Shown piece by piece: positions 1,500-15,201 of a stretch of DNA of 15,812 nucleotides. Source of the stretch: a phage. How positions within the stretch are numbered: position 1 is the first letter of the stretch; every line of letters begins with the position of its first letter. The DNA lies in NCBI GenBank assembly GCA_012060505.1, contig GCA_012060505.1_3027.2. One strand, 5' to 3'. The notes below the pieces were generated by a model. The model was not told the DNA's origin and did not search any database. It was given only the letters and a program-made list of their open reading frames with translations. A program made the position numbers and the translations under genes.

Positions 1500-2501
1500 T
1501 TACTTAATTAACTGTAAAGCTTGTTCAAGACGATCAAGACGATTAACAGATTCTTCCCAAATCCTTTTAGCTTGCTCATATTCTTTCTGTGCTTTATTAG
1601 AAATTTCTAGAACTTCTTTATAAGCTTTTTCTAGTGCAATAACTTCTGGACGAATTTCTACCGATTCAGGTGAATCATCAAGATTATCCATTAGTTCCTC
1701 AAGGGTAGTTTCTTCTTTAGGAGTATTCACAATTTCTTCGCATTTTTGTTGGTAAATTTCTTTATCAGTTAGTGAATAAGCACATTTCACTTCACGAAGA
1801 CTAATTACAATTTTATATCCTTCCCAACCACCAATATTTTTGAAAGGATATGTATGAATACTTTTTACAGTTTCCATACAATCCAAAGCCGTCTCTAATT
1901 GATGAGTTATAGTGCTAGCAATTGAGAAAAATTTATTAATATTCTTTTGGTTAGCTTCTGGTGTAAAAAATTCATAATTCACAAAAATAGCTACTTTATT
2001 TTTATCAAGCTCATATTCTTTTACGATAATCATATCAGAAGCCAAAGGATGAATTTGACGATAATCGCCATAACATAATTTAGAAGCTGATTTTAGAATT
2101 TTTCCTTTAAAAAGTCTGAAATTACTAATCCAACGACGAGTAAAAATATTCTTAGGGTCTTCTTTGATATTAAGATGATAAGAATTAACATCACCGAACC
2201 AATTGTATCCTATTACACCTTTAGTTCGTTTAATTTCTTTCCCAAAATTACCAAGAATATCCCGATTAACTAAATATGAAAGAAGACGAGACCCTTTAAA
2301 GATTATCTTAATATCATCTTTATCTACACGGCTAGAAATTTCACGAACTTCATGAATAAATTTACTGGAAGAAACAATACTTGCATCAATACTGCTGAGC
2401 CATTGATTGATAATAGAAAGAACAGCATTCTGACTAGACATGGGTTTAACTTTATCATCAATAACCCTATTGAATGATTTGATATATTCGTTACGAGTCA
2501 T
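1500..2501 (-). CDS. Hypothetical 334-aa protein, N-terminus MTRNEY, C-terminal coiled coil
   Basis: ORF track frame; start moved to ATG 2499-2501 (SD GAGGAG upstream) because the longer track start overlaps the promoter at 2530-2559. Confidence 0.75.
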   Translation of the reverse strand: MTRNEYIKSFNRVIDDKVKPMSSQNAVLSIINQWLSSIDASIVSSSKFIHEVREISSRVDKDDIKIIFKGSRLLSYLVNRDILGNFGKEIKRTKGVIGYNWFGDVNSYHLNIKEDPKNIFTRRWISNFRLFKGKILKSASKLCYGDYRQIHPLASDMIIVKEYELDKNKVAIFVNYEFFTPEANQKNINKFFSIASTITHQLETALDCMETVKSIHTYPFKNIGGWEGYKIVISLREVKCAYSLTDKEIYQQKCEEIVNTPKEETTLEELMDNLDDSPESVEIRPEVIALEKAYKEVLEISNKAQKEYEQAKRIWEESVNRLDRLEQALQLIK

Positions 2502-2529
2502 ATTAATCTCCTCAGTAGAAAGTAAGAAC

Positions 2530-2559
2530 ATTATACCACATCCTTGTGGCAAAGTAAAC
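2530..2559 (-). promoter_or_regulatory. T4-early-type sigma70 promoter
   Basis: Minus strand: GTTTAC - 18 nt - TATAAT with TGG immediately 5' of the -10 (extended -10); placed between the stop of gene 2559-3578 and the start of gene 1500-2501. Confidence 0.6.
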
Positions 2560-3578
2560 TAGTTCAGTGCATTTAATGCATTGTTCAGTTTAGAACGTTG
2601 CTTTGTCAGATTTTGAACCCTTGACTGAGCTTGTTCTAACGCCTTTTCAGCTTCTAGCACTTCATTGGTCGCTTTAACGAGTTCATCATCTACTGCCTTG
2701 ATAGACTTCTCAATCGCATCCGCGTGCCATTTTTCAACAGGTTTAAGACTCGGATTTTCAACAGGAAGAAAATTCACTTTATTGAATTTCCATGCATCAT
2801 TATTACCTGAACTATACATCCAAAATTTAGGATCGTTTGATAAGTAATTGGATAAATTTAAGTTATCTTGTACTTCCTGCTTTTTCTCTTGCGGGACTTC
2901 GTCCTTTCTCAAAAAATCGTATTTAAATGAAACGATCATATCAAGTTCATATGATGTTGTATCTAACTTAAATCGTTCAAAACGAGGTAAAATCTTAGAC
3001 TGAACAGCGGCAACAACATCCATATACTTAAATGCTTCTGTCAACTGTGATTTAAGGCATTCACAAATTGAAAGAGAATTTTTTGTATTAGGTTTAAAGC
3101 TAATTCGTGCAGTTCTATTATTTTCTTTTAATGGTCTTACTTCCATCTGAAGAGTATAACCATCAAATTTCAGGTTCTTTAAGTTAATGTCAGAACCTTT
3201 TAATCGACTAGCTGTCGACAAAATTTGCTTTAACTGTTTACGGAATAGAGCAATAAATCTCCATTCAATACGATAATGATTGGGATTGAAAAATCCAGAT
3301 GATAAATCAACCTTACTCTGACCAACACCTTGAACAAATAGAGGATTTTTATAATCAATAGTTTTACAGAAATCGGTGAGCTGCTCACGAGCAGTCATTT
3401 GTGTAATATATCCCGCTTTACTAAAATGACGTAACCATTCACTGCTATTCATATATTTAAAGTGAATGGAACTATTAACTCTATCAGGGTCTAAATTATT
3501 TTGGCACAAAAATGTCATAACATTACGGGTATAGCTGGCATTACGAACCATATCTTCAATTTGAGAACGAGTTTTCAT
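2559..3578 (-). CDS. Hypothetical 339-aa protein, N-terminus MKTRS, C-terminal coiled coil
   Basis: ORF track; ATG 3576-3578 with SD AAGGAA; C-terminus LVKATNEVLEAEKALEQAQSRVQNLTKQRSKLNNALNALN. Confidence 0.75.
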   Translation of the reverse strand: MKTRSQIEDMVRNASYTRNVMTFLCQNNLDPDRVNSSIHFKYMNSSEWLRHFSKAGYITQMTAREQLTDFCKTIDYKNPLFVQGVGQSKVDLSSGFFNPNHYRIEWRFIALFRKQLKQILSTASRLKGSDINLKNLKFDGYTLQMEVRPLKENNRTARISFKPNTKNSLSICECLKSQLTEAFKYMDVVAAVQSKILPRFERFKLDTTSYELDMIVSFKYDFLRKDEVPQEKKQEVQDNLNLSNYLSNDPKFWMYSSGNNDAWKFNKVNFLPVENPSLKPVEKWHADAIEKSIKAVDDELVKATNEVLEAEKALEQAQSRVQNLTKQRSKLNNALNALN

Positions 3579-4941: not shown

Positions 4942-5466
4942 TGCGAGTACCGTCTTTAACCGTTCTTCAAATTTCCGAAGAGTGTTCTGGCGTTCAGCTC
5001 TTTGCTTTTTGTAAGTTTCAATACGCTCTGAAATGAGAGTGTATCGTTCATTTACTGATTCTTTCATAAAATCAGGAATTTCACGAGAAGCTTTAATCTC
5101 ATCAAATTTATCAATAACAGCTTGCTCTTCAGCAATTAAGTTATCATACATTAAAATATCTTTCTTGATGAACTCAATATCTTCTTGAGTTACACGAGAT
5201 AATTTAGATGCTTTATCCTTTTTGTACTGTTCGTTAGTATCACGAGACCAGTGTAATGTACGATTTTTATTCGTATTTTTGTAAATTTCTACAATACCAA
5301 TTTCATCAATAATAACGATCCAATTCCAACGGGATTTGTAAATTTGTCCTCCATCAACAGTGATTTCACCTCCGATTGAGATGTCATTAAAGAACTTGCT
5401 TTGTGCTTCAGATTTAAATTTACCATCGTTGTAATTTACCAGGTTGAAAATATCTTTAGCATTCAT
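4939..5466 (-). CDS. Hypothetical 175-aa protein, C-terminal coiled coil
   Basis: ORF track frame; start moved to ATG 5464-5466 (SD GGAGG) because the longer track ORF runs through the promoter at 5495-5524. Confidence 0.7.
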   Translation of the reverse strand: MNAKDIFNLVNYNDGKFKSEAQSKFFNDISIGGEITVDGGQIYKSRWNWIVIIDEIGIVEIYKNTNKNRTLHWSRDTNEQYKKDKASKLSRVTQEDIEFIKKDILMYDNLIAEEQAVIDKFDEIKASREIPDFMKESVNERYTLISERIETYKKQRAERQNTLRKFEERLKTVLA

Positions 5467-5494
5467 TTTCTGTTCCTCCGTAGTTGATAGTTGT

Positions 5495-5524
5495 ATAGTA
5501 CCACAGAGGAACAGTCTTGTAAAC
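5495..5524 (-). promoter_or_regulatory. T4-early-type sigma70 promoter
   Basis: Minus strand: GTTTAC - 18 nt - TACTAT, TGG 5' of the -10; shares a 22-nt identical core (5482-5503) with the promoter at 6934-6963. Confidence 0.6.
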
Positions 5525-5526
5525 AA

Positions 5527-5829
5527 CTAAAAGAAACTTCTTTCACAATTTTTTCCACTGAACCATGCGCTGACCGCTTTCTTAGTCTCAGGAGCAGTGT
5601 TATCCATAAACCATTCAAAGGCAGCCTTTTTATGATTCTGGAGGGCTTCTCGGGCTTTAATCTGCTCACGGTCTATTAACACTAACATATGAGCCTTTCT
5701 TGTCACCAAGGGCTTCTTATGATTCTTGGAGTATTCCCAGTCATTTGTCCAACGCATTGTCGTTGCGAACTGATGAACCGCGTCTTTAATTTTAGTTTCA
5801 TAAATTTCACGAGCCTTTGAGTATAACAT
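5527..5829 (-). CDS. Hypothetical 100-aa protein
   Basis: ORF track frame; start taken at ATG 5827-5829, which follows SD GGAGG by 5 nt. Confidence 0.6.
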   Translation of the reverse strand: MLYSKAREIYETKIKDAVHQFATTMRWTNDWEYSKNHKKPLVTRKAHMLVLIDREQIKAREALQNHKKAAFEWFMDNTAPETKKAVSAWFSGKNCERSFF

Positions 5830-5930
5830 CACTACCTCCATTCACCAGTTTAATTCTAGTCATCTTTTTGATGGCAGTCCATATAATCTATTTCTGAACT
5901 GCCTTTTTGTCATAGAAGTCCTCTTATGAA

Positions 5931-6899
5931 TTATTTCAGAAGAGTAACCTCAGCGATTTCTTCCCAACCGTTTTTGTCGGTCATAATAAAGTCAGCAAGA
6001 TAAAGAGCAGTACGCAGTGAAACATTGCGTAAACGATTAACATTGACTTTCATCCATGATAATGCTTTATAAGTTTCTTCATCAGAAAGACCGCGCTTTT
6101 GCATCATGTCAGTTGAAAGAATAACATCTTCAACCCTGACCATAATTTCTTCATTAGTGTGAACACCCAAATCCAAATAAACTGAGCGGGACACTAATGC
6201 TTGTAAATGTGGAGCAAGTTTAGTACCACGGTCTAATTCGCGGTCAATATCAACGTTTGTGATAAAAACAATCGTTCCTTTAAATTCAAACTCACGCTCA
6301 ATGCCTTTTTCTTCTAAGTAAGAAGATGCAGTGCTCCAGCAGACTTTACGGGTCTCTCCAGTGTCCAGAGCAGCTTTTAGAAGATTAAGAATGTCCATAT
6401 CAGAGAAAACATCCACATCATCAATCAAAAGGACAGAATTCTCTTCACGATTATTCCAAAGCTGTTCATAAAGACCAATACCAGAGATTTTACCATTAAT
6501 GCTTTTATACTCAATGTATCCAATATCATTTGCTTTATTTAAAGCTTTATCTAAAGAATACGTTTTACCAATACCTGCTGCTCCCGAGATAATTAATGAA
6601 CGAATGTTTCCGTTAATAATACCATTCGTCATCATTCCCATAACATTAAATCTTTTATTAATGCGGGTTTTCATATCTTCATACGATTCTTTAACTTCTT
6701 CAACTTTTACACCATCATATGAAATGTCTGATTTGTAAACCCAAACACCGCGACGTTTACCGTCAATTTCAACAAAAACTTTACCATCTCCTTGTGCATC
6801 TACCGGAGCATTATCTGGGAACCATTCGCCTAAGAGCTCAAAAGTTCCAGAGATTTCTTTACCGAAGTAGATACCCTTATTGATAGTTACAGTTTTCAT
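5931..6899 (-). CDS. AAA+/P-loop ATPase-like protein, 322 aa
   Basis: Walker A SGAAGIGKTY, Walker B-like VLLIDDVD, sensor-like IVFITN; start ATG 6897-6899 with SD GGAGAAT, just downstream of the promoter at 6934-6963. Confidence 0.8.
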   Translation of the reverse strand: MKTVTINKGIYFGKEISGTFELLGEWFPDNAPVDAQGDGKVFVEIDGKRRGVWVYKSDISYDGVKVEEVKESYEDMKTRINKRFNVMGMMTNGIINGNIRSLIISGAAGIGKTYSLDKALNKANDIGYIEYKSINGKISGIGLYEQLWNNREENSVLLIDDVDVFSDMDILNLLKAALDTGETRKVCWSTASSYLEEKGIEREFEFKGTIVFITNVDIDRELDRGTKLAPHLQALVSRSVYLDLGVHTNEEIMVRVEDVILSTDMMQKRGLSDEETYKALSWMKVNVNRLRNVSLRTALYLADFIMTDKNGWEEIAEVTLLK

Positions 6900-6933
6900 T
6901 TTATTCTCCAAATCCGTATCAGTTGATAGTTGT

Positions 6934-6963
6934 ATAGTACCATAAAGCTTTATGCTTGTAAAC
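6934..6963 (-). promoter_or_regulatory. T4-early-type sigma70 promoter
   Basis: Minus strand: GTTTAC - 18 nt - TACTAT with TGG extended -10; sits immediately downstream of the terminator at 6986-7013. Confidence 0.6.
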
Positions 6964-6985
6964 AATTTTGTGAAAAAATTTTTGA

Positions 6986-7013
6986 AATAAAAAAAGGGAG
7001 CCCGAAGGCTCCC
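6986..7013 (-). terminator. Intrinsic terminator, 7-bp GC stem with UUCG loop and U-run
   Basis: Minus strand reads GGGAGCC-ttcg-GGCTCCC followed by TTTTTTTATTT, directly after the TGA of gene 7016-8029. Confidence 0.8.
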
Positions 7014-7015
7014 TA

Positions 7016-8029
7016 TCATTTATAATAACTTCGGTGGTTTTCAAGATAGACCTTCTCAAGGAAGTCATCCCAGAAACCCATGTCTACTTTTTGCTGCATA
7101 CCGTTCTTAGAAGCTTCAATAGATGCTGCTTCTACTTGATCGACCACATCTTCCAAAAACTCTTGAACTGTTTTAAATGGATGTTTACCCAACTTCACGT
7201 CGAGAATAAATGGAGCATCTTGAAGTGGATAAACCAAGTCACCAGTTTTGTAAATTTCCAATAGTTGAAGTCCACCACGGCAAGCATGGCTCAGAGCTTT
7301 CCAGTCAATACCTTCATTGGCTTCGGCCTTACGAGCACGTTCACCGTATTCGGCATCAAGTTTATTCAAAGACTGCTTAAGCTCAATAAGAGAAAGCGTT
7401 GTCTGATATTTACGACCCAACACAGTGTAGAACGTTTGTGGACCGGTTTTCTCATGATTATGGAATACCCATTCACAAAACTCGTTTTCAGGGAGTCGGT
7501 GTTTGATATCTTCTACCTTAGTTCGGCGTAAACGATCTGGAATTCCCTCTTGGTAATCAACCCACTGGTCAGGGATTTGATTAACTACTTTCAATACATC
7601 ACGTAATGCGGCCAAACGAGAACCCTTGACACCGTATTTAGAAGCTTGCTTGCGAACATATCCTAAATAGGATTTCATGTTAGTCGTATAAAAACGAGAA
7701 CGATTGTCTTGAATAAACTTCCATACATCAGGCAAATCAGATTTAACTACCAGTTCAAGTGGAGTGTGGAGCATATCCAATGCTACGGTTTCACCATCTG
7801 CTGCTAATTTAAAGAAATATTTAAGACTGTATAGTTCATGGTCAATATCATCTTTGGTGTTTTTAGATGATGTGTTGTTAGTGTTTTTACTCATATGCTC
7901 TTTGACATTTCCGATAAGAATATCGCGAGCAGGAGGAACAAAGATTTCTTTAAAATCTACATCAGATTCTGGAGTAGAAGTTCCATAAAGATGACTACCA
8001 AAATAGCTTTTCATTACTGTTTTCATCAT
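7016..8029 (-). CDS. Pol-beta-superfamily nucleotidyltransferase-fold protein, 337 aa
   Basis: N-terminal motif GSHLYGTSTPESDVDF (G[SG]-x9-13-D-x-D) plus downstream acidic ALD; ATG 8027-8029 overlaps the upstream stop as ATGA. Confidence 0.75.
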   Translation of the reverse strand: MMKTVMKSYFGSHLYGTSTPESDVDFKEIFVPPARDILIGNVKEHMSKNTNNTSSKNTKDDIDHELYSLKYFFKLAADGETVALDMLHTPLELVVKSDLPDVWKFIQDNRSRFYTTNMKSYLGYVRKQASKYGVKGSRLAALRDVLKVVNQIPDQWVDYQEGIPDRLRRTKVEDIKHRLPENEFCEWVFHNHEKTGPQTFYTVLGRKYQTTLSLIELKQSLNKLDAEYGERARKAEANEGIDWKALSHACRGGLQLLEIYKTGDLVYPLQDAPFILDVKLGKHPFKTVQEFLEDVVDQVEAASIEASKNGMQQKVDMGFWDDFLEKVYLENHRSYYK

Positions 8030-8487
8030 TCAGCCTTATATTCAATAACAGGACATACTTTAGCTTTACGAGCTTTTAAAAATTCAACGATAATCGATTT
8101 CTTGGGTTGAATAGGAGGTAAACCTTTATACGCCCTATCAATATTTTCTACGTGTAAAGCATAGTCCTTTTTCCATTTATAATCTTTATATTTTTCACGC
8201 AGTTGTGCAGGAATAACAAATGAACCGATAATAAGTAAAACAACCAAAAGCGCAAGTATAAATGCTGATGGAAGCAAAGTCCATAAACTACCGAAAATAA
8301 GCCAACGTTGTAGGCTTTCTGCACAAATAATTGTTAGCCCTATGAGTATAGTACACCCAAAAATAGAAACGAAAAATGTAGGTATGGCAATAGACCAAAA
8401 ATATGCGCATAGTGTCTTAGGTCGTTGCCATTCATCGTTAAACAATTTGAATAATTTATAGTGCCAAGAGTTTTCATTAATAATCAT
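8026..8487 (-). CDS. Predicted multi-pass membrane protein, 153 aa
   Basis: ORF track; ATG 8485-8487 with SD AAAGGA; three long hydrophobic segments. Confidence 0.7.
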   Translation of the reverse strand: MIINENSWHYKLFKLFNDEWQRPKTLCAYFWSIAIPTFFVSIFGCTILIGLTIICAESLQRWLIFGSLWTLLPSAFILALLVVLLIIGSFVIPAQLREKYKDYKWKKDYALHVENIDRAYKGLPPIQPKKSIIVEFLKARKAKVCPVIEYKAE

Positions 8488-8489
8488 AA

Positions 8490-9011
8490 TTATCCTTTCA
8501 TTGAAGGCGTAACGGTTGTTAAATACTTAATCATAGCTTCAGCTTCTGATTTTGATAGTGAAATTTCTTCACCGTTTTGGCGAATAGAAACAAAATCTGG
8601 ATGACGATCACCACCAGCTTTTAAAACACACATATAAGTATCAGCTTCGCCTTCAATATTTGAAATGATTGAAGCAGTTCCACACGAATGTGGTTTTTGA
8701 TAAATCAATACAGCTTTTCTTCCACCATTTGACTGTTCATAGGCTTTTAATACATCAAACAAATCAGTTCTTTTATCAATAGCTAAAATGTTATTTTCAT
8801 CTTCAATGTTAAATCCTTCGGATACTTCATAAAGCGTTACCCATAAATCGCCAATATCAATAACAGCATTTACTTTTCCACGGCTTTCAAGAGTATGACA
8901 AATTTTCTTGATTTCGTCATAACTCATTTTAATAATATCATCTCCTTGACTAAGGAAGATGTCATTTTTAAATTCAACACGAATTAAACCGCTTCCACTT
9001 GAAATAAACAT
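8490..9011 (-). CDS. Hypothetical 173-aa protein, paralog of the next gene
   Basis: ORF track; ATG 9009-9011 with SD GAGGAAAT; C-terminus EAEAMIKYLTTVTPSMKG resembles the C-terminus of the 9018-9560 product. Confidence 0.7.
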   Translation of the reverse strand: MFISSGSGLIRVEFKNDIFLSQGDDIIKMSYDEIKKICHTLESRGKVNAVIDIGDLWVTLYEVSEGFNIEDENNILAIDKRTDLFDVLKAYEQSNGGRKAVLIYQKPHSCGTASIISNIEGEADTYMCVLKAGGDRHPDFVSIRQNGEEISLSKSEAEAMIKYLTTVTPSMKG

Positions 9012-9017
9012 ATTTCC

Positions 9018-9560
9018 TCACTTTGAAATCATAGTTGGAATTACAGAATCAAGATAAGTCTTTAGTGCAATAGCTTCGTCTTTGGTAAATGTGACAATAT
9101 GTGCTCGAGAATCATCAATTTGGCGAACAAGTACGACATCGCCATCTTCATAAGAAGTCTTGACATCCAAAGTCGTAGTATAATTTGCAGCTACTGGATT
9201 AATAATGCTAGCACCGCGATCTTTAGCCCATTGAAGTTTAGCCTTTTCGGGTGTTTCGACTGTTTCAGATTCTAAGAATTCTTTCACCTTGACAACGAAT
9301 GTTGCCCAATTGCTGATAGAAAGACACATAAATTCAGTTTCAATATTACCGCCGTAAAGGCCACGATAAAAACGAACTTGGAGGTCGTCTGTAATATTAG
9401 TTACACCGGTAACTCCTGAGGGAGCATAAGATAAAATCGCAGCCAGTTCCATAGGAAGAATAGTAATACTATCGTCTTCCTGCGTCAGAACGTATACATT
9501 ACCACGTTTTTCGATAACCAGGTCACCGAACAAATCAGTTGTTTCAATTACAGCTTTCAT
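9018..9560 (-). CDS. Hypothetical 180-aa protein, paralog of the previous gene
   Basis: Track ORF begins at a TTG; ATG at 9558-9560 is used instead; C-terminus DEAIALKTYLDSVIPTMISK. Confidence 0.65.
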   Translation of the reverse strand: MKAVIETTDLFGDLVIEKRGNVYVLTQEDDSITILPMELAAILSYAPSGVTGVTNITDDLQVRFYRGLYGGNIETEFMCLSISNWATFVVKVKEFLESETVETPEKAKLQWAKDRGASIINPVAANYTTTLDVKTSYEDGDVVLVRQIDDSRAHIVTFTKDEAIALKTYLDSVIPTMISK

Positions 9561-9561
9561 A

Positions 9562-9747
9562 TTATTTACCAATTAAAGTTTCAATATAAGAATCAAGATT
9601 TACTTTAGCTTCTTCCATAAGAGTTTTGTATTTAATCTTGTTGGCATGTCCGGAGAAAGCTGATTCATCAATAACTGTTGCTGTATGAACAGCTTTGCTA
9701 TATGTTTCAATTAATTCTCTTAATTTAAAAGCCTGCTCACTTGTCAT
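9562..9747 (-). CDS. Small helical protein, 61 aa, member of a ~60-aa paralog family
   Basis: ATG 9745-9747 follows SD AGGAG by 6 nt; N-terminus MTSEQAFKLRELIETYSKAV. Confidence 0.6.
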   Translation of the reverse strand: MTSEQAFKLRELIETYSKAVHTATVIDESAFSGHANKIKYKTLMEEAKVNLDSYIETLIGK

Positions 9748-9851
9748 CACATACTCCTCTGAATCATATCAATAATGTTATTCACCAGATTATAAGTAAA
9801 CATTGGGTAATTATATTGAATCATCACATACACAACAAACAAAACTTTCAT
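9747..9851 (-). CDS. Possible 34-aa hydrophobic micro-protein (below ORF-track threshold)
   Basis: Manual translation MKVLFVVYVMIQYNYPMFTYNLVNNIIDMIQRSM; SD AAGGAG upstream; lies just downstream of promoter 9880-9909; stop overlaps the next start. Confidence 0.35.
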   Translation of the reverse strand: MKVLFVVYVMIQYNYPMFTYNLVNNIIDMIQRSM

Positions 9852-9879
9852 TCTCTTCTCCTTGACAGTTGACAAGATT

Positions 9880-9909
9880 ACTATACCATAACCTTGCCAA
9901 CTTGTAAAC
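9880..9909 (-). promoter_or_regulatory. T4-early-type sigma70 promoter
   Basis: Minus strand: GTTTAC - 18 nt - TATAGT with TGG extended -10. Confidence 0.6.
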
Positions 9910-9911
9910 CA

Positions 9912-10085
9912 TTAAATGGTGTTTTCAATAAAATTCTGAAGCTTTGTGTGAGCATCAACCATGATTTTCATTTCTTCTTTGGCGAAAGCTGTACCTCTTT
10001 CCCGAGAAGAACATTCATAGTCAGAAACTGCATTAGCATATTCTTCAATTAGTTTCATTAAAAACATCTGCTTTTCAGTTTTCAT
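9912..10085 (-). CDS. Small helical protein, 57 aa, paralog-family member (below ORF-track threshold)
   Basis: Manual translation MKTEKQMFLMKLIEEYANAVSDYECSSRERGTAFAKEEMKIMVDAHTKLQNFIENTI; SD AGGTGG; 11-nt overlap with upstream gene. Confidence 0.5.
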   Translation of the reverse strand: MKTEKQMFLMKLIEEYANAVSDYECSSRERGTAFAKEEMKIMVDAHTKLQNFIENTI

Positions 10086-10269
10086 TATTCCACCTAATCA
10101 TTTCAAGATATTGAACTAACTTAGCTTTAGATTTATCCAAATCCTTTTTAGCTGTTTCTATACCGTCGTATGAATATCCTTCACAATGCTCAACTGCTAA
10201 TTGGTATGAATCTATTTCAATATCACGTGCTAATTTAATGATTTTTTCAAACTGTTCACGTGTTAGCAT
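10075..10269 (-). CDS. Small helical protein, 64 aa, paralog-family member
   Basis: ORF track; ATG 10267-10269; N-terminus MLTREQFEKIIKLARDIE. Confidence 0.6.
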   Translation of the reverse strand: MLTREQFEKIIKLARDIEIDSYQLAVEHCEGYSYDGIETAKKDLDKSKAKLVQYLEMIRWNNEN

Positions 10270-10271
10270 AC

Positions 10272-10475
10272 TTAAACTCTCGTATTATGATCAATAATTT
10301 CATCAAGAAACATATCTAACGCTTCTAAAGCATTATCCACTTTAGTTTCAAAGTCTTTAATGCCTTTATTCGAAATACCCGATGAATACCAAGCAAAGTC
10401 AATCAGCTCTTCATCTGCTTTGCGAATTGAAGCCACTAATTCCTTGATTTTATCCGCTTGCTCTACACTAATCAT
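10272..10475 (-). CDS. Small helical protein, 67 aa, paralog-family member
   Basis: ORF track frame; start taken at ATG 10473-10475 (TAATG overlap with upstream stop); N-terminus [18 protein letters not shown]. Confidence 0.6.
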   Translation of the reverse strand: MISVEQADKIKELVASIRKADEELIDFAWYSSGISNKGIKDFETKVDNALEALDMFLDEIIDHNTRV

Positions 10476-10663
10476 TATTCCACCACATATGAAAGAGAGA
10501 ATATTGCACACGCCATATGAGTTGCAACTTCATCACACATATTATAACGTTTCTTAAGAAGTTCTACAAGTTCTTCACTGGTAACTTCATCCATGTCGAC
10601 GAAAAAATCACCATTAATGATGACGTAGATATTTCCTTCTTGATTGAGTGCTTCAATTTTCAT
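10475..10663 (-). CDS. Hypothetical 62-aa protein
   Basis: ORF track frame; start moved to ATG 10661-10663 (SD AGAGGAGA) because the longer track ORF overlaps promoter 10692-10721. Confidence 0.6.
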
Positions 10664-10691
10664 GATGTTCTCCTCTTTATCTAATAGTTGT

Positions 10692-10721
10692 ATAGTATCA
10701 CAGCTCAAACGGAAAGTAAAC
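10692..10721 (-). promoter_or_regulatory. T4-early-type sigma70 promoter
   Basis: Minus strand: GTTTAC - 18 nt - TACTAT; immediately downstream of terminator 10726-10754. Confidence 0.6.
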
Positions 10722-10725
10722 CGGT

Positions 10726-10754
10726 AAAATGAAAAAAGTCTCCCGAAGGAGACT
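10726..10754 (-). terminator. Intrinsic terminator, 7-bp stem with UUCG loop and U-run
   Basis: Minus strand reads AGTCTCC-ttcg-GGAGACT followed by TTTTTTC, 5 nt after the stop of gene 10759-11145. Confidence 0.75.
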
Positions 10755-10758
10755 AATG

Positions 10759-11145
10759 TTATTCGAGGGAAAGAAGATACTTACTCTGGTAAAACATTCC
10801 AGTAATATCATCTATCGTGCTTTGAATGGCTGGAGGCATTTCTTTATAAATGCTGTTAGATTGGTCTAGTATACGATTAATCATTTTAATTGTGTCGGTA
10901 GGAAGTTTACTGGCATCTGGAATTGAAGGTGTGTATTTTCTACCAGAATACCCCAAATATTGCTCACCAAATTTATCAATCAAATCTGGCAACTCGGAAA
11001 AAATAAAATCGTATGCTTTGTGTCTAGCATAACTTTTAGTTTCAAAATGCGCAGAATGAAAATAAGCTTGTGCAGCCATTAATAAACCTAAGTATTCATC
11101 TGCCTTTGAAGGTTTTCCACTTTGTGAAAAGTCACTGAATTTCAT
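10759..11145 (-). CDS. Hypothetical 128-aa protein in the position of T4 rI.-1
   Basis: ORF track; ATG 11143-11145 with SD GGAGA; ATGA overlap with rI stop; name by synteny recall only. Confidence 0.7.
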
Positions 11146-11702: not shown

Positions 11703-12284
11703 CTAACCGAGCTTTTTAGTTAATTCATTCCAATGTTTTCTACACAAAGAAACATAAATTTCATCACCAATACAGATTTGATTACCTTCTTTAACTGGTG
11801 TTCCATCTTCCATTAATCGAGCTGTCATAATCGCTTTTTTGCCGCAATGACAAACTGCCTTTAGTTCAATAAGTTTATCTGCAATCGCTAAAAGTTCTTT
11901 AGAACCTTCAAACAATTTTCCAGCGAAATCAGTCCTTAATCCATAAGCCATAACAGGAACATTATATGTATCAACAATTCGACTTAATTGATGCACCTGT
12001 TCAGTTTTTAAAAATTGGGCTTCATCTACAAATACGCAATGAATATCTTTTTGTGCTTCAGCCCATTTATAGAACTCGAAAATATCCATATCATCTGTAA
12101 TAATATTCGCTTCCTGTTTAATTCCAATGCGAGAAACAACTTCACAGACAGAATCGCGAGTATCAATAGCAGGCTTAAGAACTAATACACTCATTCCACG
12201 TTCTTTATAATTATGTGCAGCAGTCAAAAGAGAAGCAGATTTTCCAGCATTCATTGCTGCATAAGTAAAAATTAAACTCGCCAT
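11703..12284 (-). CDS. tk: Thymidine kinase, 193 aa
   Basis: P-loop AAMNAGKS at the N-terminus, C-terminal Cys cluster (CHCGKK ... CIGDEIYVSLCRKH) typical of type II thymidine kinases; SD AAGGTGA. Confidence 0.93.
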   Translation of the reverse strand: MASLIFTYAAMNAGKSASLLTAAHNYKERGMSVLVLKPAIDTRDSVCEVVSRIGIKQEANIITDDMDIFEFYKWAEAQKDIHCVFVDEAQFLKTEQVHQLSRIVDTYNVPVMAYGLRTDFAGKLFEGSKELLAIADKLIELKAVCHCGKKAIMTARLMEDGTPVKEGNQICIGDEIYVSLCRKHWNELTKKLG

Positions 12285-12293
12285 ATCACCTTC

Positions 12294-12479
12294 TTAAAGC
12301 GTATTCACATAAGCTATTAATTCATTTTCTTTCTTATCAAACCGATCAGCAAATTCTTCCTGCTGTTCGGGAGATAGCGGGCCGTATTCATCATAAAAGG
12401 TGTTTGCTTCTGTATGCTCATCTAGAAGTTCATGGATAAGCTCAAACAATTTATCTTTTTGTTCTTTACTCAGACTCAT
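12294..12479 (-). CDS. Small acidic helical protein, 61 aa, paralog-family member
   Basis: ORF track; ATG 12477-12479; N-terminus MSLSKEQKDKLFELIHELL. Confidence 0.6.
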   Translation of the reverse strand: MSLSKEQKDKLFELIHELLDEHTEANTFYDEYGPLSPEQQEEFADRFDKKENELIAYVNTL

Positions 12480-12649
12480 ATATTAATTTCCAGGAGTTTT
12501 AAAATAATTCGCTTTTGCTTAAATATTTCCATAGTTAAATGACCAGTATCTTTTTGACCGATTCCAATGGCAAAACCTTTATTAACAGCGAGTTCAATTA
12601 AATTATCAAGCTCACGTAACACTTCGTATTGTAACTCAAAACTATTCAT
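12476..12649 (-). CDS. Hypothetical 57-aa protein (below ORF-track threshold)
   Basis: Manual translation MNSFELQYEVLRELDNLIELAVNKGFAIGIGQKDTGHLTMEIFKQKRIILKLLEINI; ATGA overlaps at both ends link it to its neighbours. Confidence 0.5.
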   Translation of the reverse strand: MNSFELQYEVLRELDNLIELAVNKGFAIGIGQKDTGHLTMEIFKQKRIILKLLEINI

Positions 12650-12852
12650 TTTGGTTTACCTTCTTTAACGAAATCAGGATAAGGATAAAATCCTGAATAA
12701 AATCCTTCACCTTTATGATTGATGCATCCTTTATTAGAACAATAGCACCAATAATCGAAATCACAAGCCATTTCATCATTACATAAAGCAAAAACAACCG
12801 GCCACTTACACTTTTCACAATGGGCATTTTTAAGAATACTAGTTTGGCTCAT
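12646..12852 (-). CDS. Small Cys-rich protein, 68 aa, probable zinc binder
   Basis: Start taken at ATG 12850-12852 (ATGA overlap with upstream stop); seven Cys including CEKC and CYC. Confidence 0.6.
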   Translation of the reverse strand: MSQTSILKNAHCEKCKWPVVFALCNDEMACDFDYWCYCSNKGCINHKGEGFYSGFYPYPDFVKEGKPK

Positions 12853-13061: not shown

Positions 13062-13512
13062 AATCCACCACTATTAAATCAATATCAGGAGTAAACATGT
13101 CGATTAATTTAGAAACTTTATCCCAATCGCCGGCAGCAATACCACAACCTATACGTGGAATGTAAATTACCGGTTTAAACAAAAGGGTTTCTGCCTGTAG
13201 ATTTAATTCTATCATGCAGTTTACTAAAGCACCATAATCAAGATTAGGACCTGGTTCGTATTGCGTATACAAGTTATAACATATGCCAAAACCATTAGGT
13301 TTATGTTTAAAAACAATAGACATATCGCCTAATTTATCACGAGAACCGTACTCAGTTGTGGTCTTATCTATTTCTAAAATTTTGGGGTAGGCTCTTGCTA
13401 ATTGACCCGCTACACCTGAACCCATAGTATGAAAACAGTTACACCCGTGCGCAATAATATTACCTTCAAGAAAGAGGGCGACAATATCGCCCTTGATATA
13501 TTTTACAATCAT
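13033..13512 (-). CDS. Macro-domain-like (ADP-ribose-binding/processing) protein, 159 aa
   Basis: Motifs HGCNCFHTMGSGVAGQLA and PRIGCGIAAGDW resemble the N-x-x-N...GGGV and G-I-x-G loops of macro domains; ATGA overlap with vs stop. Confidence 0.7.
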   Translation of the reverse strand: MIVKYIKGDIVALFLEGNIIAHGCNCFHTMGSGVAGQLARAYPKILEIDKTTTEYGSRDKLGDMSIVFKHKPNGFGICYNLYTQYEPGPNLDYGALVNCMIELNLQAETLLFKPVIYIPRIGCGIAAGDWDKVSKLIDMFTPDIDLIVVDYESTLPTSV

Positions 13513-14401: not shown

Positions 14402-14863
14402 TCATTGAGTTTTAATTACTGCTTTAGAAGCCTTTCCTGGTAAACGACGACTGTTGATAATTGCCATCCTGCATTGAAGTGACGGGTTTTTGAACTTCTC
14501 ATTAGGCTTACAAACCGTAAATCCAAGCCAAAGATTTCCATCTGTGATTTCTAAACGTCCAGGACGATATTCAACCCCATCAATAAAATCCTCGTCAATG
14601 TCAGGACGCGGAGGCATACTCAGGAATTCATTAACTTCTAAAACATGGTCTTTTATTTTATGGAATAATTCAAAAACATATGTCTCATCAATCTCCCGTT
14701 GAATTGCACGATCAAGAAGATGCTGAGAATACTTTAGATGAAACGATGAGACCCCTGCTGCTTTTGATACCTCACGAATCTCATTGTTAATTTGACGAAA
14801 CTCCGACTCAAAGTGACGACGAAGCTTATTTCGACGGATAAAAACTTCTGTGTTGATAGTCAT
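14402..14863 (-). CDS. regB: RegB-like sequence-specific endoribonuclease, 153 aa
   Basis: Length 153 aa and position next to vs with its own early promoter match T4 regB by recall; SD GAGGAGAAT. Confidence 0.7.
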   Translation of the reverse strand: MTINTEVFIRRNKLRRHFESEFRQINNEIREVSKAAGVSSFHLKYSQHLLDRAIQREIDETYVFELFHKIKDHVLEVNEFLSMPPRPDIDEDFIDGVEYRPGRLEITDGNLWLGFTVCKPNEKFKNPSLQCRMAIINSRRLPGKASKAVIKTQ

Positions 14864-14890
14864 GTTATTCTCCTCTTAACTGATAGAAAA

Positions 14891-14920
14891 ATTATACCAC
14901 AGTCAAGAGGAAAAGTAAAT
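14891..14920 (-). promoter_or_regulatory. T4-early-type sigma70 promoter upstream of regB
   Basis: Minus strand: ATTTAC - 18 nt - TATAAT with TGG extended -10. Confidence 0.6.
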
Positions 14921-14922
14921 AG

Positions 14923-15201
14923 TTATTCTTTAAATCTAATCAATTTATTCATAGACTTTGAAACTTCTGCACGAACCTCATGTAAGTTTTTAAGCTGTTC
15001 AAGACGCTGCTCATAGTAAGCAATTTCATCTTCTTCGAGACAGTCCTGTGAATCTTCTTTAAGATAACGTGCATAGTCCTGGAAAGCTTTACGGACTACT
15101 TCCTGGAAATCATCAAGACTTTGAATTTTCTTAGGAGCGACAGATACACGACGAGGGGCAGTATAATACTCATAACCAAACCCTGCACTTAATTGAGCCA
15201 T
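14923..15201 (-). CDS. Hypothetical 92-aa protein
   Basis: Track ORF begins at a GTG; ATG at 15199-15201 forms a TAATG overlap with the upstream stop and is preferred. Confidence 0.55.

Follow-up and report, generated by a model that had tools for sequence, protein, structure and literature searches.

Terminator and early-promoter cassettes in the nrdC.2-to-regB segment of a T4-like phage: standard control modules and candidate joints for gene exchange

Promoter early stem-loop (PeSL) cassettes have been described in T4-type phages (Arbiol et al. 2010, PMC2839356; Comeau et al. 2014, PMC4122927): for the PST/T4 pair their consensus is TTTACW-N17-TAYWAT accompanied by a stem-loop (Comeau et al. 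2014, PMC4122927), for RB49/phi1 a class with the stem-loop overlapping the -10 box was described, and promoter and terminator activity as well as mini-circle formation were studied by reporter assays and polymerase chain reaction for circular junctions (PMC2839356). The early promoters of T4 (Pe) are UP/-35/TGn/-10 promoters with additional conserved regions (Hinton 2010, PMC2988021), and at the T4 genes e, soc, 49 and I-TevI, which have late promoters, hairpins in read-through RNA occlude translation (McPheeters 1986, reviewed in PMC3014915). Here, the short repeated terminator and early-promoter cassettes upstream of nrdC.8, nrdC.10 and mobD.5 in a stretch of 15,812 nucleotides of phage DNA (contig GCA_012060505.1_3027.2, hereafter referred to as the window) were compared with these systems. 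It is considered highly probable that the cassettes are the usual control modules found between genes of the T-even early region and that they also serve as joints for gene exchange as in the PeSL model.

The window corresponds to the Tequatrovirus nrdC.2-to-regB segment of T4-like phages; its closest relative in megablast comparison was phage CAM-21 (98%), hundreds of database records aligned with it at 95-97%, and the region orthologous to its nrdC-tk part is present in phage PST at about 50-52 kb. According to the comparison with the annotated T4 and Kha5h records, the minus strand carries all genes of the window, and the repeats and cassettes must therefore be read on that strand; read in this way, all coordinates of a preliminary description of the window hold, and all control elements located below lie on the minus strand. 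The architecture of the cassettes, their orthology to T4 elements, their membership in a dispersed family, their predicted structures and the location of indel and transfer boundaries within them were established directly. The resemblance to PeSL modules proposed in the preliminary description was borne out: each of the three sites combines a sigma-70-type early promoter fitting TTTACW-N17-TAYWAT with an A/T-rich segment, a stem-loop (z scores of -3.6, -2.6 and -4.7 at nrdC.10, mobD.5 and nrdC.8, respectively) and the Shine-Dalgarno (SD) sequence and ATG of the next gene; as in the hyperplastic regions from which PeSLs are known, dispersed copies are numerous (six promoters in the window, further copies in T4 and its relatives, the promoters being orthologous in 10-11 relatives), and at nrdC.10 copies clearly bound indels and gene swaps. 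Nothing essential distinguishes the window cassettes, which are the T-even versions in the nrdC-tk region; in two of them a canonical terminator preceding the promoter provides the stem-loop, and in the third this role falls to a hairpin across the -10 box, an arrangement that matches the RB49/phi1 class.

The module in front of nrdC.10 begins with a rho-independent terminator 1 nt past the stop codon of nrdC.11 (7016-7018), whose stem-loop (6995-7014; AGGGAGCC-UUCG-GGCUCCCU) is followed by a U-tract (6986-6994; UUUUUUUAU); including U7 it spans 7014-6988, with a predicted folding energy of -17.5 kcal/mol (z -3.6), and it is annotated as a rho-independent terminator in the Kha5h record. An A/T-rich, UP-like segment (6963-6985; TTCAAAAATTTTTTCACAAAATTG) that is common to other T4 early promoters leads into the early promoter (6934-6962: -35 box TTTACA at 6962-6957, a 17-nt spacer containing the palindrome ATAAAGCTTTAT, TGG at 6942-6940 and the -10 box TACTAT at 6939-6934), and a leader of 34 nt with the SD sequence GGAG ends at the ATG of nrdC.10 (6899-6897; leader and ATG together 6897-6933).

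Among the eleven relatives with which the window was aligned and from which the structural differences were listed, the nrdC.11/nrdC.10 junction exists in at least five states. The terminator plus the promoter is the state of the window, T4 and others; in BYEP01 the promoter is precisely lost from the -35 box to the leader, with terminator and SD sequence kept; in YUEEL01, HY03 and ZCEC14 an open reading frame (ORF) of 49 amino acids and a DUF4031 ORF are present, after which a second early promoter is located; Geo contains an additional third ORF with a third promoter; and T2 harbors a ModA-like ORF of 161 amino acids between two full terminator-TTTTATTTCAAAAATTTTTCACAAA-promoter modules. Each of the extra ORFs in the relatives is bounded by copies of the promoter or of the terminator-promoter module, and the T2 insert is flanked by direct repeats of about 30 nt that comprise the terminator tail and the UP segment at 6963-6985. 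The recombination joints would differ between phages, because homology with the window stops right after ...CTATCAA in YUEEL01, HY03 and Geo and at the ATG in ZCEC14. Judged from these alignments, the junction is a clear hot spot of gene swapping.

The ORF inserted in T2 shares 28% identity with T4 ModA (E 6e-11); a Pfam search of this ORF gave no match, and the relationship to ModA was seen in the pairwise BLASTP comparison. With its own promoter and terminator, the ModA-like cassette occupies positions 7160-7860 of the compared T2 segment, 2421-3056 of that of STML-198 and 2421-3060 of that of Moon. Although these phages belong to three genera, the cassette of Tequatrovirus T2 is 96-98% identical to those of Gelderlandvirus STML-198 and Moonvirus Moon, whereas in both of them the flanking nrdC.11 shares 67% identity with T2, and in STML-198 the flanking nrdC.10 shares 76% (in Moon, nrdC.10 falls within a single high-scoring segment pair together with the cassette, with an average of 84%). 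The block of high identity extends from the -35/UP region of the cassette's promoter to the downstream terminator/promoter, and in STML-198 an unrelated ORF is joined to the retained Tequatrovirus core TACTATACAACTATCAACTGATACGG. Because the cassette is so much more similar than its neighboring genes, the comparison points to a recent transfer between genera with edges in the promoter/terminator modules, which is what the PeSL model predicts (PMC2839356, PMC4122927).

The repeat that drew attention to these modules is the 22-mer AGTTGATAGTTGTATAGTACCA, which was reported in the preliminary description to be shared by the promoters of nrdC.8 and nrdC.10 and indeed occurs exactly twice in the window, at 5482-5503 (copy 1) and 6921-6942 (copy 2); on the coding strand both copies read TGGTACTATACAACTATCAACT. 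The positions covered by the 22-mer are those of the extended -10 and -10 boxes, the presumed start site and approximately the first seven transcribed bases. The identity is part of a longer resemblance, since a repeat search of the window returned a family of 45 nt with three copies (100, 82 and 67% identity), the weaker third of which (10679-10723) includes the 14-nt partial match ATAGTTGTATAGTA that had been described at 10684-10697 and lies within the mobD.5 promoter. On the coding strand the two full copies have the form TTTACA-17 nt-TGGTACTAT-ACAACTATCAACT, with the SD sequence and an ATG 28 or 34 nt past the -10 box, and the third has the form TTTACT-17-TGATACTAT-ACAACTAT. That the similarity is due to chance or is a functionless low-complexity repeat can be given hardly any credence: the regional A/T richness is all that speaks for it, none of 200 dinucleotide-preserving shuffles contained a match to the 22-mer even with three mismatches allowed, the element holds a constant position relative to the -35 box, the SD sequence and the ATG, and it is kept at orthologous sites in hundreds of genomes; on the grounds of shuffles, fixed spacing and conservation this explanation was rejected.

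In the whole-genome scan of T4, the exact 22-mer was found six times and related promoters at least 13 times, and a query of 122 nt comprising promoter and leader gave 7-10 blastn matches in each related Tequatrovirus genome. The nrdC.10 leader ACAACTATCAACTGATACGGATTTGGAGAATAAAATG recurs at other T4 loci; near-identical leaders (...ACTGATACGGATTTGGAGAATAAAATG) are present at T4 27079, 55383 and 167085, the leader ACAACTATCAACTACTGATACGGATTTGGAGAATAAAATG is shared by T4 27079 and 167085, and a second sub-family is characterized by TACTATTACCCTATCAA. The copies are mosaics in which one leader is combined with different spacers in other copies; the promoters of nrdC.10 and frd.3 (T4 146874), for instance, agree at every position from the UP segment as far as ACAACTATC, beyond which, inside the core, they differ. 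The 22-mer is thus a trait of a dispersed promoter/leader family and no private link between two sites: it is identical at nrdC.8 and nrdC.10 because both belong to this one family. The identity of the two is also found in T4, T2, RB32, Kha5h, Sf25 and LH2 and is therefore old or maintained; a recent gene conversion between the two 22-mers was ruled out by its presence in these six relatives and at four further T4 loci. The derivation of the nrdC.10 promoter as a simple chimera of the promoters that flank the YUEEL01 insert was likewise rejected, its leader being a complete family member that matches T4 27079 and 167085 and not the insert-flanking promoters of YUEEL01. As a separate observation, the module upstream of T4 frd.3 (T4 146925-146840, aligned with window 7014-6921) consists of the terminator GGGGACC-CTAGA-GGTCCCC followed by the nrdC.10-identical promoter up to ACAACTATC, and the module downstream of the T2 insert contains the near-identical terminator GGGGGCC-CTAGA-GGTCCCC, so that one module type occurs at two distant loci.

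The suggestion of the preliminary description that the cassettes could act as recombination substrates was upheld at nrdC.10, with the multiple junction states and the inter-genus cassette, and not as a general statement. About 16 structural differences were listed for the window, four of which touch a cassette: three at nrdC.10 and one at mobD.5, where a 145-nt deletion in Sf25 (window 10703-10849) removes the 3' end of rI.-1, the terminator and the mobD.5 -35 box and ends in the promoter spacer, leaving TGTGGTACTATACAACTATCGG joined to the rI.-1 coding sequence; no structural event in the eleven relatives touches the nrdC.8 cassette. The cassettes make up 3.3% of the window, and breakpoints were enriched in them only when the whole window served as the null (p=0.018).

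Several observations weigh against a special role of the modules in recombination. The remaining 12 of the approximately 16 differences lie away from the cassettes and comprise homing-endonuclease insertions, recombination between the nrdC.3 and nrdC.4 paralogues and microhomology at gene starts. The cassettes represent 68% of the intergenic DNA of the window, relative to which no enrichment of breakpoints was detected, so that the breakpoints within them may simply mark tolerated indels. The recombinant predicted from an exchange between the two 22-mers, which would lack nrdC.9 to nrdC.10, had no full-length match among 50,697 phage records, the best matches to its junction being the ordinary nrdC.8 promoter (91-92%); a homology of 22 bp is short for efficient homologous recombination. 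Initiation and termination at the cassettes, and with them the precise start positions, are inferred from the sequence and the T4 literature, as the recombination mechanism is from the sequence comparisons.

These points would be in line with a pure promoter constraint, according to which the 22-nt identity reflects selection for a very strong early promoter and the indels are merely tolerated, without any special part in recombination. The core indeed covers recognized promoter elements and is unchanged in the six relatives that share it, and both the lack of breakpoint enrichment relative to intergenic DNA and the missing two-copy recombinant speak for such a constraint. On the other hand, it does not account for the identity that runs 25-30 nt into the leader at several unlinked loci, for the independent assortment of upstream and downstream halves among the copies, for the direct repeats of terminator tail and UP segment bounding the T2 insert, or for a 97%-identical cassette amid flanks of 67-76% identity with its edges in the modules; as the entire explanation it is therefore regarded as unlikely. 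The combined role as control module and joint of exchange is preferred, and a recombination role is supported by these sequence comparisons for the nrdC.10 cassette. The modules would serve as joints at which gene cassettes are inserted, deleted and swapped, as in the PeSL model, because they are the longest shared sequences in otherwise unrelated gene neighborhoods, and the family would be kept together by selection for promoter strength together with exchange among its copies.

As control modules, the cassettes belong to a set of six TTTAC[AT]-17-TGnTAnnnT elements, located upstream of regB (14891-14919), mobD.5 (10692-10720), mobD.2a (9880-9908), nrdC.10, nrdC.8 (5495-5523) and nrdC.4 (2530-2558; its spacer contains the short hairpin GCCACA/TGTGGT), each about 27-34 nt upstream of an SD sequence and ATG. 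All six are kept at orthologous sites in T4, T2, RB32, Kha5h and seven other relatives; T4 has nearly identical -35 boxes in front of the same genes, at 53942, 55383 and 58779, and the fPS-2 record contains a "promoter" annotation at the position of the nrdC.8 orthologue. By sequence and gene order, each promoter of the three cassettes is the orthologue of the T4 element that precedes the same gene (nrdC.8, nrdC.10 or mobD.5). They share with the Pe promoters of T4 the GTTTAC-type -35 box, the 17-bp spacer, the TGn motif, the UP-like segment (ATTTCAAAAATTTTTTCACAAAATTG at nrdC.10, TTTTTCATTTTACCGG at mobD.5 and AAGTTTCTTTTAGTTG at nrdC.8) and the location directly upstream of early genes; in contrast to them, the -10 box is TACTAT instead of TATAAT, and the sub-family to which these promoters belong also shares ACAACTATCAACT after the -10 box.

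The mobD.5 module resembles that of nrdC.10. Its terminator is positioned 4 nt past the stop codon of rI.-1 (10759-10761), with the stem-loop AGUCUCC-UUCG-GGAGACU at 10737-10754 (T4 orthologue at 58814) and a U6 tract at 10731-10736 (10754-10731 in total; -10.8 kcal/mol, z -2.6); the promoter consists of the -35 box TTTACT (10720-10715), a 17-nt spacer, TGA and the -10 box TACTAT (10697-10692), and the leader with the SD sequence GAGGAG ends at the ATG at 10663-10661 (10661-10691 together). At nrdC.8, the -35 box TTTACA (5523-5518), a 17-nt spacer, TGG and the -10 box TACTAT (5500-5495) are followed by a leader of 28 nt and the ATG at 5466-5464 (5464-5494 together). In all three cassettes GGAG, GGAGG or GAGGAG precedes the ATG by 5-8 nt. 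Two UUCG-loop terminators with U-runs had been described, and these were found after the nrdC.11 and rI.-1 stop codons; the coupling of terminator and promoter applies to nrdC.10 and mobD.5, where the -35 box starts 32 and 16 nt, respectively, after the stem, and not to nrdC.8, whose promoter adjoins the stop codon of nrdC.9 (5527-5529) with no terminator in front. Modules in which a terminator is followed by a promoter number six in T4, and four of these have UUCG loops. With other UUCG rho-independent terminators those of the window have in common the GC-rich stem of 7-8 bp, the UUCG loop, a U-tract of at least 6 nt and the location 1-4 nt past a stop codon; the stems vary in sequence by site, the loop and architecture being constant, and the window terminators differ in being coupled to a restart promoter within 16-32 nt. 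Elsewhere in the window, a GC-rich stem-loop of 8 bp (AGGGCGAT/GTCGCCCT; 13475-13493) within a coding region is terminator-like on both strands and has no clear U-tract.

Taken as a transcription unit boundary, such a cassette would operate in the following way: the rho-independent terminator (GC stem, UUCG tetraloop, U-tract) would end the upstream unit at nrdC.11 or rI.-1, the strong host sigma-70 early promoter (UP-like segment, -35 GTTTACA, 17-bp spacer, TGn, TACTAT) would restart transcription within 16-32 nt, and the leader of 28-34 nt would supply the GGAG-type ribosome-binding site for nrdC.10 or mobD.5. At nrdC.8, a like promoter without terminator would instead lie inside a hairpin.

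This hairpin comprises 15 bp and straddles the -10 box (5470-5514; 5' arm 5514-5500, 3' arm 5484-5470 including the SD sequence GGAGG). In the calculated fold of read-through RNA it reaches -23.2 kcal/mol (z -4.7) with GGAGG buried, compared with 0 kcal/mol for the transcript from the nrdC.8 promoter itself; according to the folding model, the hairpin can only form in RNA started upstream. Similar structures enclose the -10 boxes of regB (window 14860-14925; 18 bp, -21.6 kcal/mol, z -4.9, with the regB SD sequence predicted to be buried in read-through RNA) and mobD.2a (window 9855-9915; 15 bp, -19 kcal/mol, z -5.3); regB is auto-regulated through cleavage of its own SD sequence. The Rfam covariance-model scan of the whole window at the gathering score matched no family.

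These folds suggest that the surroundings of the core may have been shaped mainly by promoter-gated translation: read-through RNA would fold and bury the SD sequence at nrdC.8 and regB, the transcript from the gene's own promoter would be translated, and expression would be tied to the immediate-early period. This possibility is judged to have less than an even chance. Over 31 T4 early promoters, spacers pair more strongly with their own than with non-cognate leaders (-9.9 versus -5.8 kcal/mol; permutation p=2e-4), and the SD sequence is fully paired in the read-through RNA of 11 of the 31, compared with 19% of chimeric pairs (p=0.009). The nrdC.8 orthologues in Mosigvirus, Dhakavirus and Gaprivervirus also place the -10 box within a strong hairpin whose arms differ in sequence, covarying across genera, and the late-promoter cases of T4 e, soc, 49 and I-TevI offer precedents (PMC3014915). 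As in those cases, the promoter would be situated between the hairpin arms with the SD sequence in the 3' arm, so that only transcripts from the gene's own promoter would have it free; the known cases use late promoters, which delay expression, whereas the early promoter of the window would confine expression to the early period. The arrangement was found in silico at nrdC.8 and regB only. In contrast, both terminator-bearing cassettes lack such a hairpin (-1.8 and -6.9 kcal/mol for the nrdC.10 and mobD.5 promoters in T4), the SD sequence is part of the nrdC.8 helix in two of the four genera and outside it in the other two, and mean SD accessibility did not differ between cognate and chimeric promoter/leader constructs (Wilcoxon p=0.75). 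The 22-mer identity is left unexplained as well: most of the 22-mer lies in the hairpin loop, and the hairpin does not explain the repeat because the nrdC.10 and mobD.5 promoters are without it. The wider proposition that T-even early promoters systematically lie within covarying hairpins, with the SD sequence as 3' arm at roughly one in three (nrdC.8 and regB among them) and translation only from the gene's own immediate-early transcript, is modeled from the same folds and is advanced as tentative and rather doubtful. If true, the gene would be silent on read-through RNA, and early promoters would thereby mirror the switch that operates with late promoters at T4 e, soc, 49 and I-TevI; the same inverted repeats could also be behind the recombination-proneness of the modules.

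Further structural differences were noted outside the modules. In RB32 a seg-like endonuclease gene is inserted between nrdC.10 and nrdC.9 (window 5924-5950), and T4 and BYEP01 carry mobD in place of two unrelated ORFs of the window (8026-8487 and 8490-9011; region 8026-9011). To judge from the resemblance of their N-termini (MKTRKHYIDYF and MTRNEYIKSF), the genes nrdC.3 and nrdC.4 (1441-2482) appear to be paralogues; in HY03 and LH2, 1040 nt are lost between their gene starts with an overlap of 17 nt, and one gene remains behind the nrdC.4 promoter. In HY03 a further 2036 nt are missing between the gene starts at 8039 and 10076, both with ...AATGAAAAC and an overlap of 23 nt, which suggests that translation-initiation regions may also act as short recombination homologies. 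A stretch of about 590 nt (9152-9746; 5' part of a mobD.1-like ORF through the mobD.2 region) is shared only by Kha5h among the fetched relatives, most of the others having 400-425 nt of different sequence in its place. Near tk (12284-12848; tk.1-tk.3 region), the number of small, translationally coupled ORFs varies among relatives, with breakpoints at gene boundaries and no promoter involved.

The repeats are thus real but ordinary. Because their T4 orthologues have long been known as early promoters and terminators and they conform to the PeSL description published for the T-even group, little is new in the elements as such, T4 early promoters and PeSLs having been described already; what is added comprises the multi-state hot spot between nrdC.11 and nrdC.10, the module-bounded ModA-like cassette shared between genera and the statistics for the -10-straddling hairpins. 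In annotating Tequatrovirus genomes, one can rely on the cassettes to locate early promoters, terminators and true start codons, and phage engineers find in them natural places for insertion that already possess expression signals. Current understanding is unchanged, with documented examples added to the PeSL model. For the biology of these phages, the cassettes would explain how the small early genes of this block are expressed as short, restartable transcription units, and they indicate where genes enter and leave the genome: at the nrdC.11/nrdC.10 junction, a ModA-like ADP-ribosyltransferase paralogue and a DUF4031 gene pair appear to come and go.

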